This document shows, in pieces, positions 17,935 through 63,470 of a DNA stretch of 64,000 nucleotides. The number at the start of each line of letters is the position of its first letter. Within the stretch, counting starts at the first letter, position 1. Under the pieces are notes generated by a model, which was not told the origin of the DNA, did no database searches, and saw nothing but the letters and a program-made list of their open reading frames with translations. Made by a program: the position numbers and the translations under genes. This DNA comes from Oscillospiraceae bacterium (GTDB lineage Bacteria > Bacillota > Clostridia > UMGS1810), in NCBI GenBank assembly GCA_015069095.1, contig SVJH01000002.1:7650-71649 (forward strand), given 5' to 3'.

Positions 17935-18107
17935 TTAATTTTCCTCCTTCAAGATATTATTTTCATCCTGTGATTACATCATACAACATAAATTTTAAAA
18001 AATTATGAATAAATTGTAAATTTTACAAGATAATTTTGTGAAAAGGCTCCCTTGTGCAAAGGGAGCCTTTTTATTTGACAAAAAACACATTTTATAGTAG
18101 AATGATT

Positions 18108-18283
18108 ATGCTACAACTTACAAATTTAATATTATTTCAAATAAAGGGTTACGCTAATGTAAAAAGCGTATACTCTGATTCGTCATACTCTTTGTTTGGA
18201 ATAATAATTTGTATGTAAGTTGTAGCAGACCGAATCAAAGTCCCTACGTTTTTTATGCGTCGGCTCTGGTCGGCGCATTTTTT
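18108..18283 (+). promoter_or_regulatory. Structured 5' leader with intrinsic terminator (copy A of a 3-member family), class unassigned
   Basis: Promoter TTGACA (18075-18080), 17-nt spacer, TAGAAT (18098-18103). 14-bp closing helix 18109-18122 / 18214-18227. Inner hairpin 18150-18155 / 18165-18170. Terminator 18255-18278 plus a T-run. Confidence 0.6.
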
Positions 18284-18302
18284 AATTTTGGAGGAATTTT
18301 GT

Positions 18303-18479
18303 ATGGAAATTATAGACGTAACAGGAATTAAACTTACACCCGGAAATGAAGGTAAAGACTGCCTTGGAAACGGCGAGCACTTTGACGAAAACGGAAACCT
18401 AATTGAGTGCTGTTGCAACGAATGTGATTATTTAATACGTTGCCTTAGCGAAGAAGAAAAACAAAGATTTATGATTTAA
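18303..18479 (+). CDS. Small cysteine-rich protein (58 aa, 6 Cys)
   Basis: RBS GGAGGA upstream of the ATG at 18303. Paralog at 35420-35599 differs mostly by synonymous changes. Confidence 0.7.
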   Translation: MEIIDVTGIKLTPGNEGKDCLGNGEHFDENGNLIECCCNECDYLIRCLSEEEKQRFMI

Positions 18480-18603
18480 CACCCAAACGGTTAATCGTTT
18501 GGGCTATTTTTTATCCTAAAATACTTTCCAAATTATTGACGATTTCGCCTTTAAATGTTATAATATAAAGTTAAGAAATAATATTTACTTAAAGGAGTTT
18601 ACT

Positions 18604-29962: not shown

Positions 29963-30038
29963 TGGAGCTGGTGATCGGACTTGAACCGACGATCTATTGA
30001 TTACGAATCAATTGCTCTACCGACTGAGCCACACCAGC
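29963..30038 (-). tRNA. tRNA-Thr (anticodon CGU)
   Basis: Cloverleaf read by hand: acceptor GCTGGTG/CACCAGC, anticodon loop TTCGTAA, T-loop GGTTCAAGTCC, encoded CCA. A terminator hairpin lies downstream at about 29923-29962. Confidence 0.85.
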
Positions 30039-30230: not shown

Positions 30231-30323
30231 CTTCATCACCTCTTAAAAGTATTATGCAAAAACAAAAACTTTTTATACTACTTTACAAATAATACTACAA
30301 GTGATATAATATTGTCAAATATA

Positions 30324-30478
30324 AATCTTCAGGGCGGGGCGAAATTCCCCACCGGCAGTTATAGTCTGCGAGCTTTTTGCTGATTTGGTGAAATTCCAAA
30401 ACCGACGGTACAGTCCGGATGGAAGAAGAATTTTTATGTGTATTATTTTGCCCTGTTTTATATAAACAGGCTTTTTTT
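30324..30478 (+). promoter_or_regulatory. FMN riboswitch (RFN element) with terminator
   Basis: Conserved AGGGCGGGGCGAAATTCCCCACCGGC ... GATTTGGTGAAATTCCAAAACCGACGGTA ... CCGGATGGAAGAAG. Terminator CCTGTTT..AAACAGG plus a T-run. TGaTATAAT promoter upstream. Confidence 0.9.
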
Positions 30479-35198: not shown

Positions 35199-35284
35199 GT
35201 TCTTTTAAAAAAGAACCAAAACCATACTTTTTTTGTAAAAAAAGTATGCAAAAAAACTTACATATGCAAAACATTCGTTTTGCA
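35199..35284 (+). repeat. Three-hairpin intergenic repeat module (family A), copy 1
   Basis: Hairpins at 35199-35216, 35223-35248 and 35265-35284. Homologous to 60564-60650 and to the reverse complement of 36274-36359. Confidence 0.75.
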
Positions 35285-35419
35285 TCATATCTATGTCTCC
35301 CTTGCCTAAAGGGAGGTGCTTAGCGAAAGCAAAGCGGAGGGATTTAAAGCACTCAAGTTTTTGAGTGCTTTTTTTAAAATTCATATTTTGTAGGGGAGGG
35401 TCTTATGCGCCCTCCCGTT

Positions 35420-35599
35420 TTATTTTATTCTAAGCATTTTCTTTTCTTCTTCGCTAAGACAACGTATTAAATAATCACATTCGTTACAGCAGCACTCAAT
35501 TATGTTTCCATTTTCGTCATAATGCTCGCCGTTTCCAAGGCAGTCTTTACCTTCGTTTCCAGGTGTAAGTTTAATTCCTGTTACGTCTATGATTTCCAT
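35420..35599 (-). CDS. Small cysteine-rich protein (59 aa), paralog of 18303..18479
   Basis: ATG at 35599 after GGAGGAA. Over the first 53 codons, 9 synonymous versus 2 conservative differences relative to copy A (hand alignment). Confidence 0.7.
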   Translation of the reverse strand: MEIIDVTGIKLTPGNEGKDCLGNGEHYDENGNIIECCCNECDYLIRCLSEEEKKMLRIK

Positions 35600-35799
35600 G
35601 ATAAATTCCTCCAGAATTAAAAAATGCGCCGACCAAAGCCGACGCATGAAAAACGCAGGGACTTCGATCGTTTTAAATATTGCTACATAATTAAAACACC
35701 ATATTTCCAAAAAAGAGGGTATGACAAATCGAAGTGTACGCCTTTCTTAAAATAGCGTACCCCTTATTGGAAATATTATTTTAATTAATTATGTAGCAT
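35600..35799 (-). promoter_or_regulatory. Structured 5' leader with intrinsic terminator (copy B)
   Basis: Promoter TTGACA (35827-35832 rc), 17-nt spacer, TAAAAT (35804-35809 rc). Closing helix 35785-35799 / 35681-35694. Terminator 35624-35647. Confidence 0.6.
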
Positions 35800-35840
35800 A
35801 ACCATTTTACTATAAAATGTGTTTTTTGTCAAATGAAAAG

Positions 35841-36105
35841 GCTCCCTTGTGTAAAGGGAGCTGTCGAGCAAACGCGAGACTGAGGGATTGTTTTATTATT
35901 TTTCTTTCTTTTTGCTTTATTCCTATTTTAACAATTACAATCCCTCCGAGTTGCTACGCAACCCACCTCCCTTTACACAAGGGAGGCTTTACGGGACGTC
36001 GTTTCGCGCCGTCCCCTACAATGTTTAAACCAATAAAATAACCGAGTGATTTATTTTCACTCGATTTTAATTTTATCCTTAATACCAACTCACTTATGGA
36101 ATGAA
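35841..36105 (+). repeat. Composite palindromic intergenic repeat (family B), full-length copy
   Basis: GGGAG-box hairpins at 35841-35861 and 35966-35986 bracket GAGACTGAGGGATTG ... CAATCCCTCCGAG arms. The tail is homologous to 1325-1488 in reverse complement. Confidence 0.8.
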
Positions 36106-51467: not shown

Positions 51468-51546
51468 AGTTTATTATATCATATTTCAAAGAATATGTAA
51501 ACTGATTTTTTTGAAAAAATACAATAAAAAAAGACCTTTCGGTCTT

Positions 51547-51750
51547 TTAATAAAAATATAGCATAAGTGCGTTTTCAATTCTTTTTTCAAGTTCTTTATC
51601 ATTGAGTGTATCGGCACATAAAATAATATCTTTTATATCACTTATAAGTGCCTTTTTTCGTCTTTTTGCCCTTTCTTCGTCGCTGATTTTTTCAATTTCA
51701 ACTTCTGTAAAATATTCAACTTTGTAAAATTTATCTTTATATAAACTCAT
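51547..51750 (-). CDS. Small hypothetical protein (67 aa) downstream of leader copy C
   Basis: ATG at 51750 after GGAGAAAG. No recognisable family. Confidence 0.5.
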   Translation of the reverse strand: MSLYKDKFYKVEYFTEVEIEKISDEERAKRRKKALISDIKDIILCADTLNDKELEKRIENALMLYFY

Positions 51751-51764
51751 AAAACTTTCTCCAA

Positions 51765-51973
51765 AATTAAAAAATGCGCCCACCAAAGCGAGCGCATAAA
51801 AAACGCAGGGACTTCGGTTAGGTCGCTAAACTCTAAAATACGTGCTACGAATAAAAAATACGAAAGCGGTATTAAAACCGAAGTATACGCTTTTTGTAGC
51901 GTATACACTTCCGTTATTTTTTATTCATACATATCAGCACAAAATTATTCCATTTTCAATTTTAGAGTTTAGC
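51765..51973 (-). promoter_or_regulatory. Structured 5' leader with intrinsic terminator (copy C)
   Basis: Promoter TTGCCA (52003-52008 rc), 17-nt spacer, TAAAAT (51980-51985 rc). Perfect 15-bp closing helix 51959-51973 / 51825-51839. Terminator 51774-51797 plus a U-run. Confidence 0.6.
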
Positions 51974-52072
51974 ATATTTATTTTACTACATTTTTTTAAT
52001 TTTGGCAAGTAATTTTAAAAAATACCGCAAAATTAAACAAAAATAAAGGGCATTTTAAAAATGCCCTTTCCT

Positions 52073-54423: not shown

Positions 54424-54534
54424 TTGTACAAAGAAATTTTACTGAAAATAAATTTAATTCTATACGAAGAAAACATAATTGATTTTAACGAATATGAAAG
54501 GTTAAAACAAAAAATTTTAAATGACAATTTTTAA
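54424..54534 (+). CDS. Candidate 36-aa SHOCT-like micro-ORF overlapping the recombinase start
   Basis: TTG at 54424 after GAGGTGG. Peptide ...LILYEENIIDFNEYERLKQKILNDNF. Its stop overlaps the ATG at 54521. Confidence 0.3.
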   Translation: MYKEILLKINLILYEENIIDFNEYERLKQKILNDNF

Positions 54535-55963
54535 TAAAACGCTTCGTGTTGCGTATTATGCAAGAGTATCAACGCACGAAGAGGGACAGATTTCATCACT
54601 CGAAAACCAAAAAAATCACTACGAAAATATGATAAACCAAAACAAAAACTGGACTCTTTGCAAAGGCTACATTGACGAGGGGATAAGCGGAGTTTTAGCA
54701 GGCAAAAGAGAGAATTTTCAAAAGATGATTTCAGATGCAAAAAACGGACTTTTTGACCTTATAATTACAAAGGAAATCAGCCGTTTTTCAAGAAACACGC
54801 TCGAGAGTATATCGTACACGCGTACTCTTTTAAAATATAACGTCGGTGTGTATTTTGAAAACGACGGCATTTCTACTCTTTCATCTGACGGCGAACTTCG
54901 TCTTACAATTATGAGCGCCATTTATCAGGACGAGGTGCGAAGGATTTCCGAAAGGGTTAAATTCGGGCTTAGTGAAGCAATTAAAAATCAAAAAGTTCTT
55001 GGCACAAATACAATAGGATATGTAAAAAAAGATGGCGTTTTATTGCTTGACGAAGAAGGCGCAAAGGTTGTTAAGGAGATTTTTCATCTTTATGTTGACA
55101 AAAAAATCGGCATACGCCAGATAAGCTTAGATCTTGCAAGCCAAGGATATTTTAACACAAATGGCAACCCTTACTCTTTTTCGAGCATAAGAAACATTCT
55201 TACAAATCCAAAATACAAAGGCTACTACTGTGGCAGAAAGTATGAAAATGTTGACATTTTTGACAGAAAAAAAGTAAAACTCGAAAAGGAAAAATGGATA
55301 CTAAAAAAAGACGAAAACATACCAAAAATTATTGACGAAGACATGTGGAATAGGGCAAACAAGTTACTTAGCGAGCGCGGAGGAGATAAAAATTCGTTCT
55401 CAACAATATATGCTTTTAGCGGAAAAATTTACTGCAAAAACGATTTGTCGCCCCTTTACAGAACTGTAATTTGCCAAAAAGAAGCATGGAAATGCAAAGA
55501 AAAACGCGAAAATAAGTGCAAAAGTCCCATTATTTACACAAGCGAAATTGTATGTATAATTGAAAAAATGTTAAATGTAGATTATGAAAAAATTAAGATG
55601 TTTTTCAAAAATGCTCTTAAAAACGCAAAAACAAAAAATAATAATTGTGCAAAAATTAAAAGTGCGCTTAAATCGCTTTTTGAAAATAATATAATTTCTA
55701 AAGATGAATACAAAGAAAAATTAAATGAAATTAAGTTGAAAACAACCGATAACAACACAGGCAAAGAAATAAATATCGATGATATTATTTTAAATAAAAA
55801 AGATGTTTTGTTTTCTGACATAATTGAAAAAGTATATGTTGGTATGTCAAATGGGTATACCATACTTAACATTGAACTAAAAAACTATACAAAGTACAAT
55901 GTTAAATATATAAAAAAAGGAAGCAGAATACTTAGCGAGCCTGTTATTGAAAAGGTATTGTAG
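54521..55963 (+). CDS. Large serine recombinase
   Basis: N-terminal resolvase domain YYARVSTHEEGQISSLENQ (catalytic Ser), recombinase domain, Cys-containing C-terminal region. Confidence 0.85.
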   Translation: MTIFNKTLRVAYYARVSTHEEGQISSLENQKNHYENMINQNKNWTLCKGYIDEGISGVLAGKRENFQKMISDAKNGLFDLIITKEISRFSRNTLESISYTRTLLKYNVGVYFENDGISTLSSDGELRLTIMSAIYQDEVRRISERVKFGLSEAIKNQKVLGTNTIGYVKKDGVLLLDEEGAKVVKEIFHLYVDKKIGIRQISLDLASQGYFNTNGNPYSFSSIRNILTNPKYKGYYCGRKYENVDIFDRKKVKLEKEKWILKKDENIPKIIDEDMWNRANKLLSERGGDKNSFSTIYAFSGKIYCKNDLSPLYRTVICQKEAWKCKEKRENKCKSPIIYTSEIVCIIEKMLNVDYEKIKMFFKNALKNAKTKNNNCAKIKSALKSLFENNIISKDEYKEKLNEIKLKTTDNNTGKEINIDDIILNKKDVLFSDIIEKVYVGMSNGYTILNIELKNYTKYNVKYIKKGSRILSEPVIEKVL

Positions 55964-63231: not shown

Positions 63232-63470
63232 AAAAAAGATAGAGGCGCAATTGTTAATAAGTAGTTTTTAACAAGGTTTGGCAAAGCCGTTTTAAGTTAA
63301 ATACAAAAGGTAACATTGCCGAAGAACATTTTTTATGCCGGAAAATGTATCTGGGCATACGCAAAATATGCGTATGACTGTCACTTTTATAGTGTTGTGC
63401 TAAAAGTGTTGTGCTATCGCCATATATATTGTATATACAGGCGGAGGCATAAAGCATCCGTCTTTTAATT
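63232..63470 (+). promoter_or_regulatory. Lysine riboswitch (L-box) with terminator
   Basis: Conserved elements AGAGGCGC, TTGCCGAAG, CTGGG, CTGTCAC and GTGCTATC in the expected order. Terminator hairpin at about 63440-63463 plus a T-run. Upstream of asd. Confidence 0.8.

Follow-up and report, generated by a model that had tools for sequence, protein, structure and literature searches.

Leader RNAs with a long loop-to-tail pseudoknot: a putative family of transcription attenuators in uncultured gut and rumen Clostridia

In S-box (SAM-I) leaders and similar Firmicute platforms, a sigma-A promoter is followed by a leader of about 200 nt in which three mutually exclusive helices compete, an intrinsic terminator stands about 20 nt before the Shine-Dalgarno sequence, and an anti-antiterminator sequesters the 5' strand of the antiterminator. 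The same organization is present in the leaders described here, three copies of which lie in a stretch of 64,000 nt from an Oscillospiraceae bacterium (contig SVJH01000002.1 of assembly GCA_015069095.1, positions 7,650 to 71,649 of the forward strand; hereafter the window, in whose own numbering all coordinates are given). The anti-antiterminator of the S-box is the closing helix of the aptamer, whereas here it is a pseudoknot of 15–20 bp that joins a loop to the tail of the leader; in addition, compared with the S-box, these leaders have no conserved ligand pocket, a hypervariable rod, a non-metabolic regulon and no match in Rfam. With T-boxes they share their occurrence in Firmicutes, their presence in multiple copies in each genome, a 5' domain in the form of a long rod and the competition between antiterminator and terminator, but they show no T-box sequence, UGGN bulge or specifier-loop features: the T-box sequence, or antiterminator bulge (..GGUGGNACC..), was found in 0 of 115 elements, RF00230 gave no match at E up to 10, and a Pfam census of 80 downstream open reading frames (ORFs) contained no aminoacyl-tRNA synthetase gene, the genes being unrelated to amino acids.

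Other described leaders resemble them in part. In the infC leader a long-range pairing decides terminator formation, and in pyr leaders a trans-acting protein stabilizes the anti-antiterminator. The infC leader has a length of about 200 nt and is controlled by transcription attenuation (PMC1865079), and in both respects the present leaders are similar. They differ from the infC and pyr leaders in being multi-copy, in preceding unrelated genes and in lacking the PyrR binding-loop consensus ARUCCAGAGAGGYU (0 of 115 elements); a TRAP motif, searched as at least six spaced (G/U)AG triplets, was likewise found in none of the 115. The ZTP/pfl, preQ1-II and SAM-II riboswitches also use a loop-to-tail pseudoknot that competes with the expression platform, but their pseudoknots have 4–8 bp, depend on the ligand and contain invariant pocket nucleotides, whereas the 15–20 bp of the present pseudoknot provide about -20 kcal/mol alone. 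Finally, the c-di-GMP riboswitches of Clostridioides difficile are multi-copy leaders that end in terminators and precede genes for surface or adhesin-like proteins; the type of regulon (cell-surface proteins) and the multi-copy, terminator-ended leaders are common to both, while the fold is another one and no similarity to the GEMM-I or GEMM-II models was detected. What distinguishes the leaders analysed here is thus the great length of the loop-to-tail pseudoknot, the hypervariability of the rod and the surface and accessory proteins that make up the regulon. We regard them as a previously undescribed RNA family within a known type of mechanism, and we propose, with a probability of roughly 0.6, that each unit is a cis-acting transcription attenuator.

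Three promoter–leader–terminator units in the window

The three units are A (18075-18302, plus strand), B (35600-35832, minus strand) and C (51751-52008, minus strand). An earlier note, made from the letters of the window, had described a promoter, a leader and an intrinsic terminator in each of them, and all these features are present at the places it gave. The block AAGTCCCTRCGTTTTTYATGCG, which it had reported as shared, occurs exactly three times in the window, against 0 by chance in 100 shuffles. No fourth copy was found in the window, either by nhmmer or with the covariance model described below; a weak match of this model at 35260-35375 (+) corresponds to the adjoining terminator and a palindrome, and was rejected as an extra copy.

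Copy A is driven by a promoter with 11 of 12 consensus matches (TTGACA-17-TAGAAT, 18075-18103, +). Its leader RNA extends from 18108 to 18284; the start is placed near 18109 on account of the -10 box, and the last position is that of the U-run. The closing helix P1 is formed by the arms UGCUACAACUUACA (18109-18122) and UGUAAGUUGUAGCA (18214-18227), as read from sequence and fold, and the rod ends in an apical hairpin, UACGCU-AAUGUAAAA-AGCGUA (18150-18170). Duplex and state energies delimit the 5' strand of the pseudoknot, beta (AAAAAGCGUAUACUCUGAUUCG, 18161-18182), which would act as the anti-antiterminator, and its 3' strand, alpha' (CGAAUCAAAGUCCCUACGUUUUUU, 18231-18254). The intrinsic terminator follows directly (18255-18284), with a 10-bp stem-loop at 18255-18278 and a U-run. 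Beyond it lie a Shine-Dalgarno sequence, GGAGG (18290-18294), the putatively regulated ORF, which starts at the ATG at 18303 and encodes a Cys-rich protein of 58 amino acids (18303-18479), and a terminator that closes the cassette (18482-18503).

Copies B and C, both on the minus strand, are built in the same way. Copy B has its promoter (TTGACA-17-TAAAAT) at 35804-35832, its leader RNA at 35618-35799 with the P1 arms at 35785-35799 and 35681-35694, beta (GAAAGGCGUACACUUCGAU) at 35728-35746, alpha' (AUCGAAGUCCCUGCGUUUUU) at 35649-35668 and the terminator at 35618-35647 (stem-loop 35624-35647 plus U-run); the presumed target is an ORF of 59 amino acids (35420-35599), a paralogue of the copy A protein. 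Copy C has its promoter (TTGCCA-17-TAAAAT) at 51980-52008, its leader RNA at 51768-51975 with the P1 arms at 51959-51973 and 51825-51839, beta (AAAAAGCGUAUACUUCGGUU) at 51876-51895, alpha' (AACCGAAGUCCCUGCGUUUUUU) at 51798-51819 and the terminator at 51768-51797 (stem-loop 51774-51797 plus U-run), and precedes an ORF of 67 amino acids (51547-51750) that has its own terminator (51529-51548). The closing helices read as the note had quoted them in the three copies and dominate the minimum-free-energy folds, with z = -8.1 (A), -6.3 (B) and -8.1 (C) and 0 of 200 shuffles as stable.

The note had also proposed a second helix that crosses the closing helix (UGAUUCG/CGAAUCA in A, ACUUCGAU/AUCGAAGU in B and ACUUCGGUU/AACCGAAGU in C). 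This helix is present and crosses the rod, and the pseudoknot-like crossing is real by covariation; it is, however, only the distal part of a longer pairing, in which (U/C)ACG/UGCG and the U-run are also paired with the A-run and the 3' arm of the inner hairpin. The full crossing pairing comprises 17–20 bp in the window copies, with energies of -20.8, -21.0 and -24.0 kcal/mol for A, B and C respectively.

A cassette of about 415 bp was duplicated recently to give copies A and B (18046-18460 on the plus strand and 35442-35861 on the minus strand; 90% identical); it comprises an upstream hairpin, the promoter, the leader and the Cys-rich ORF. The upstream hairpin of copy A (GGCTCCCTT..AAGGGAGCC plus a T-run, 18045-18067, +), just 5' of the -35 box, is the upstream edge of the cassette, as the A/B alignment begins at 18046, and its counterpart in copy B scored as terminator-like. 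The rods are 86% identical with indels and the flanks 92–93%, and rod pairing is kept despite this divergence. As recent duplicates, A and B are not independent witnesses; independent support comes from the sequences of more than 100 relatives outside the window.

A family with three competing helices

The 94 proteins homologous to the product of the Cys-rich ORF pointed to a related leader in a stretch outside the window (L005; L numbers denote the listed stretches). The family was then scanned with the pattern CGTTTTTYATGCG-N10-16-GGCGCATTTTTT, one genome being taken per species, and at least 117 stretches carrying the 3' module were obtained from about 100 species-level metagenome-assembled genomes (MAGs) of uncultured gut and rumen bacteria. 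What the earlier note had presented as a family of three members is thus one of at least 117 copies in about 100 species. All listed stretches bear Clostridia-type labels except L034, on a contig binned as Alphaproteobacteria, and L067, labelled 'bacterium' only. A metagenome scan with the block AAGTCCCTRCGTTTTTYATGCG of the window subfamily gave 0 matches, and relatives of this subfamily were obtained through the Cys-rich protein homologues instead. The pattern of the 3' module had 0 matches in 2.9 million viral contigs; the element is therefore not a phage element.

A covariance model consisting of the pseudoknot helix and the terminator was built from members outside the window only. It recognizes copies A (18153-18283), B (35619-35754) and C (51769-51903) with 65.4, 65.3 and 63.6 bits respectively, at E of about 1e-10 and over the whole of the model (positions 1-122). 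These are the lowest scores among complete members, on the strength of which we place A, B and C, together with L126 and L127, in a divergent subfamily. More distant variants occur in L002 (1975-2190, 39 bits), where the leader adjoins a rolling-circle Rep gene, and in L123–L125 (about 1000-1180; 76 bits for L123); their terminators are GGUGCG..CGCAC and GUGCAC..GUGCAC, and the pseudoknot strands are altered to match. The existence of these variants indicates that the family is wider than the exact-pattern scan shows.

The note had been unable to assign the leaders to a known riboswitch class, and no Rfam class matches them. With Rfam 15 at gathering thresholds, the window yielded FMN, lysine and tRNA matches only, all away from the leaders: an FMN riboswitch at 30321-30434 (+, 115.8 bits), a lysine riboswitch at 63232-63424 (+, 99.7 bits) and a tRNA at 29966-30038 (-). 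Ordinary riboswitches of this genome are thus readily detected. An E-value scan of 17950-18550, with E up to 10, gave no plus-strand match on the copy A leader; the top matches fell on the upstream hairpin, and the few that overlapped the leader were minus-strand chance matches. In 18 typical loci of the family the element was also without an Rfam match, and a literature search by topic and by sequence string found no description of the leader family.

Family members share a strong extended -10 promoter, 5–7 nt after which begins the foot of P1, (A)UGCCAAAC...GUUUGGCGAC; beyond this conserved foot, P1 and P2 vary freely within a rod of 35–50 bp in total. The consensus continues on the 3' side as ..GUUUGGCGAC-NAUCGGAGUUUGCGUUUUUUAUGCG..terminator. 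There are two size classes of leaders. The long class (about 195–225 nt) contains a three-way junction with a small, variable, U-rich hairpin (P2a) and a P3–P4 arm whose tip is GAAUUUG-AUAAAAAUG-CAAAUUC, whereas the short class (about 150–170 nt) has the tip GCGUUUUUUA/UAAAAAUGC and lacks the three-way junction and P2a altogether. The rod is followed by the 3' module, (U/A)AUCGGAGUUUGCGUUUUUU, the terminator AUGCGUCUGC-UUCG-GUAGGCGCAU and U6. The tip strand beta (AAAAAUGCAAAUUCC), made of the loop and 3' arm of the apical hairpin, is complementary over 15–20 nt to alpha' (GGAGUUUGCGUUUUU), which lies directly upstream of the terminator, and the mean energy of the beta:alpha' duplex is -20.7 kcal/mol, against -12.9 kcal/mol with shuffled interiors. 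Nearly all conserved bases belong to the three competing helices, with the exception of the base, or foot, of P1 and of a 5' UUAAUAU bulge; the rod and junction contain no conserved unpaired nucleotides, and the junction strands and P2a vary in sequence and length. The UUAAUAU motif, which is frequently an asymmetric bulge, lies between P1 and P2 on the 5' strand and stands about 13–19 nt from the 5' end of the RNA in most members (about 18127-18133 in copy A). Its conservation reaches 90% or more, above that of its pairing partner; it might serve as a hinge, as a site for a protein or as a pause signal that resembles a -10 box. A GGA of the CsrA type is found in the main family and not in the window copies. 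Attenuation by a leader peptide was considered and rejected: there is no conserved ORF, a 5' AUG occurs in few elements with ORFs of random length, and an AUG that lies in the terminator arm is not kept in L002 or L123, two of the variants.

The three helices, namely the beta:alpha' pseudoknot, an antiterminator and the terminator, are mutually exclusive, and covariation supports the existence of each of them. It was scored on two alignments, one of 82 distinct sequences comprising the tip plus the 3' module and one of 107 real sequences aligned with the model. The pseudoknot helix is paired at 90.6% in the first, with both sides changed in 8 of 15 pairs, and at 96.3%, with 9 of 15 pairs so changed, in the second, which is biased towards the model's structure; the corresponding figures for terminator pairing are 98.7% and 99.5%. 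The covariation score was equalled by 0 of 500 shuffles, and slid registers fall to 32–58% paired. The helices are maintained by compensatory change, as the note had seen in the three copies. The antiterminator, which was absent from the note's description of the leaders, pairs CUAUCGGAGU with GCUUCGGUAG; it is paired at 80.8%, and 7 of its 10 pairs have changed on both sides. Its 5' strand consists of the 5' part of alpha' and the linker, and its 3' strand of the loop and 3' arm of the terminator. By sequestering the 5' strand of the antiterminator, the pseudoknot becomes the central element of the leader. One terminator column that is shared between two helices is particularly informative: its pairs with the terminator partner are UA (28), AU (23), GU (22) and GC (18), and those with the antiterminator partner are AU (36), UA (13), UG (8) and GC (6), so that a single column covaries with both partners, which is the signature of a switch. 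In support of the pairing, the UGCA/UGCG of other members is replaced in L123–L125 by ACACAU/AUGUGU, next to a GUGCAC terminator, and complementarity is kept. The rod itself is maintained beyond its conserved foot, as P1 positions 9-16 are paired at 88%, whereas shuffling of the partners gives 51%, and no more than 57% in any of 1000 shuffles.

For the energies of the alternative states, the 3' arms of the rod were blocked while each element was folded. The ground state of the full-length leader is the pseudoknot plus the terminator in 9 of the 9 displayed examples. At the decision point, when the 3' strand of the antiterminator has just emerged, the pseudoknot lies below the combination of apical hairpin and antiterminator in 99 of 115 elements, the gap being only some 4 kcal/mol. 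RNAfold, which does not consider the pseudoknot, chooses the antiterminator in copies B and C, where the 5' strand (35659-35669 in B, 51811-51822 in C) overlaps alpha' and pairs with 35630-35640 and 51779-51789 respectively. In the window, cognate beta:alpha' duplexes (-20.5, -21.0 and -21.0 kcal/mol) are more stable than all cross pairs (-11.4 to -18.4 kcal/mol); since cognate strands pair best, the pairing is copy-specific and acts in cis, and for the same reason a family-wide pairing of beta with alpha' in trans was judged less likely.

These observations suggest the following model. A strong sigma-A-type promoter would start the RNA at the foot of the rod, and the rod presents the apical hairpin, whose beta strand can invade alpha' in the tail. 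In the OFF state, the thermodynamic ground state, the pseudoknot would form and block the antiterminator, the terminator would fold and transcription would stop. In the ON state, beta would be held in its own hairpin, the antiterminator would form first and RNA polymerase would read into the gene. The U-tract of alpha' might pause the polymerase at the decision point, by analogy with the NusG-dependent pausing at TTNTTT in Bacillus.

Downstream genes and alternative explanations

Action of the leader in cis on the downstream gene is supported by the arrangement of the units, in which a promoter, a leader and an intrinsic terminator stand upstream of and near an ORF, with an antiterminator that overlaps the terminator and is kept by covariation (weakly in copy A). 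In about half of 125 copies, a start codon with its Shine-Dalgarno sequence is found 15–30 nt past the U-run. No consensus-strength promoter lies between terminator and ORF in the three window copies; other same-strand promoter matches reach 9 of 12 only and lie inside the leaders, upstream of the terminators. The Cys-rich ORFs (18303-18479, +, and 35420-35599, -) encode proteins with the motif C-x14-CCC-x2-C-x6-C, and as they have 94 homologues in gut metagenomes and differ between A and B mostly at synonymous positions, they are considered to be real genes, although neither Pfam nor NCBIfam assigned the small ORFs to a family. Some of the Cys-rich homologues have no leader (L001), and in L002 the homologue is the second gene behind the variant leader. 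In the census of 80 downstream ORFs, the domains found were Cu_amine_oxidN1 (7 ORFs), BspA-type LRR (LRR_5, 5) and zinc ribbons (5), in addition to SLH, Flg_new, CHAP, MazE/MazF, superinfection immunity and YpsA domains; the majority of the small ORFs had no family. The products are thus surface, zinc-ribbon, toxin–antitoxin and small orphan proteins, and no metabolite, transport or metabolic-pathway theme was found among the 80.

Several observations weigh against the attenuator interpretation. As the collection was gathered with an exact pattern that fixes the base of the terminator, part of the conservation at this place reflects ascertainment; the pair counts of alignment A5, which was fitted to the model, are biased towards the model structure. 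The antiterminator of copy A is weak, in that RNAfold prefers the terminator in this copy and a helix corresponding to an antiterminator was not detected. In the energy calculations the pseudoknot counts as a large hairpin loop, and the geometry of a stiff rod is left out of account. The ORF of copy C is an orphan for which only identical copies are recorded, 18 of 125 copies have no nearby ORF, and some loci contain tandem promoter–leader–terminator units with nothing between them (L090 and L104), which also fits a stand-alone RNA. Finally, our statements on read-through, on how it is regulated and on where transcription starts are deductions from sequence.

If the long helices were selected as DNA, they would be the inverted-repeat arms of an invertible promoter-proximal switch of the cwpV type, of a miniature inverted-repeat transposable element (MITE) or of a cruciform. 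Long inverted repeats do flank about 100–150 bp between promoter and terminator, inversion of this segment would take beta out of the transcript, a serine recombinase gene is present in the window (54521-55963), and the regulon is rich in surface proteins, as is that of the phase-variable switches that control surface proteins in Clostridioides difficile. However, a G.U pair is a mismatch in DNA, yet the rods contain 618 such pairs on the transcribed strand and 136 on the other (4.5-fold), and the rod of the transcribed strand is the more stable in 112 of 115 elements, the reverse strand folding worse by 10.8 kcal/mol on average; this excess argues for selection on RNA rather than on DNA repeats. 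In addition, the interior is itself fully helical, the arm sequences differ between copies, unlike those of MITE copies, and a flipped interior was found in 0 of about 115 complete elements, although these were gathered with a pattern that is blind to the interior. The strand asymmetry and the lack of inverted variants lead us to discard the inverton, MITE and cruciform explanations, whose probability is very small. Another explanation is that the units are stand-alone small RNA (sRNA) genes with a constitutive terminator, whose RNA of about 180–210 nt acts in trans while the ORFs are expressed by leakage or not at all. Every unit comes with a strong promoter and a terminator of its own, the ground state is the pseudoknot plus the terminator, a nearby ORF is missing in the 18 copies mentioned above, and tandem arrays without an intervening ORF exist in L090 (three units), L104 (three units), L045 and L024, and also in L038, L066 and L114, where a gene is found only after the last unit of the array. 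The tight spacing of 15–30 nt between U-run and Shine-Dalgarno sequence or start in about half of the copies stands against it, as do the conserved proteins encoded by the ORFs and the lack of a consensus-strength promoter of their own for the window ORFs; moreover, a covarying antiterminator would have no purpose if termination were constitutive. We consider sRNA genes improbable.

The earlier note had called the leaders riboswitch-like. A true riboswitch, in which the pseudoknotted fold takes up a small molecule or an ion (at the A-run:U-run helix with a third, U-rich strand, for instance) that stabilizes either the pseudoknot, as an OFF switch, or the closed rod, as an ON switch, would account for the expression-platform layout of promoter, structured leader, pseudoknot overlapping the antiterminator and terminator, for two states about 4 kcal/mol apart, and for several copies per genome, three of them in 64 kb; second-messenger riboswitches that control surface proteins are likewise multi-copy. 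Nevertheless, apart from the P1 base and the UUAAUAU bulge no sequence outside the three helices is conserved, both P2a and the three-way junction are variable and are missing from the short class, a pseudoknot of 15–20 bp at about -20 kcal/mol would form without a ligand, and none of the Rfam riboswitch models gives a score on the leader, even with E allowed to reach 10. The downstream genes share neither a metabolite nor a transport theme, and with no conserved pocket and an incoherent regulon, the reading of the leaders as sensors of a small molecule is not supported; a riboswitch is unlikely. Control by an RNA in trans is a different proposal: an sRNA antisense to the P1 foot, the linker and alpha' would block the antiterminator and enforce termination throughout the regulon. 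In five loci, L113 (about 2130-2200), L038 (about 1189-1270 and 1510-1590), L042, L028 (about 2707-2790) and L097, the terminator is followed, in place of an ORF, by 35–45 nt antisense to the consensus 3' module and then by a strong terminator. Duplex energies, scored for four of these loci as L097 is cut off by the end of the locus, are -30 to -43 kcal/mol with the consensus module, -15 to -29 kcal/mol with the locus's own module and about -19 kcal/mol with shuffles. The antisense segment is thus a candidate trans-acting anti-leader sRNA carried on a divergent leader that would largely escape it, and its existence would explain the conservation of the P1 foot (GCCAAAC/GUUUGGCGAC) amid a freely varying P1. 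On the other hand, such loci represent about 4% of those sampled, no such sequence is present in the window or was seen for the window subfamily, the copy-specific beta:alpha' pairing indicates that the core switch works in cis, and the repression is a prediction; a search of the gene neighbourhoods of the anti-leader loci for a conserved regulator found none. Regulon-wide control by anti-leaders seems to us rather unlikely, if somewhat less so than stand-alone sRNA genes. Between the two in likelihood, and hence doubtful as well, is an RNA-only circuit taken as a whole, in which dozens of accessory and surface genes per genome would share the attenuator and be shut off in trans by the anti-leader sRNA, this sRNA would be cargo carried by a divergent leader that is itself unaffected by it, forming a hierarchical and self-immune regulon, and no protein or metabolite sensor would act at individual leaders.

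Within the attenuator interpretation, we rank first, at somewhat less than even odds, a trans-acting macromolecule, either a protein or an anti-leader RNA, that would hold or block beta or alpha'. Factor-free kinetic sensing of elongation rate, NTP level or temperature comes second and is a tentative suggestion. A small-molecule ligand, ranked third, is unlikely, and that the element is simply a constitutive partial terminator or an sRNA is more doubtful still.

Neighbouring repeats and significance of the family

Two kinds of palindromic repeats lie beside the leaders. GGGAGGG-N7-CCCTCCC is found at 35394-35416 in the window and also in L012, L066 and L114, and GCTCCCTT-N4-AAGGGAGC is found at 18045-18067 and 35841-35861 in the window and also in L027, these being unrelated MAGs; both kinds look like REP-type terminator repeats. 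The large serine recombinase ORF of the window (54521-55963, +) may mark the edge of a mobile element, and no link between it and the leaders was found.

If the attenuator interpretation is correct, many surface and envelope proteins and small accessory proteins of a major clade of uncultured gut and rumen Clostridia (Oscillospiraceae, Acutalibacteraceae and Christensenella-like MAGs) are under the control of one leader RNA. Proteins of these kinds are the likeliest to come into contact with the host, with phages and with neighbouring cells. The design would be unusual, in that the hairpin loop of a variable rod invades the tail to license the terminator, which provides a testable strand-displacement model of termination. 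The family would constitute an orphan switch, the effector of which may be a protein, an RNA, a metabolite or the elongation rate, and the covariance model is ready for annotating its regulon in genomes that are not yet cultivable.

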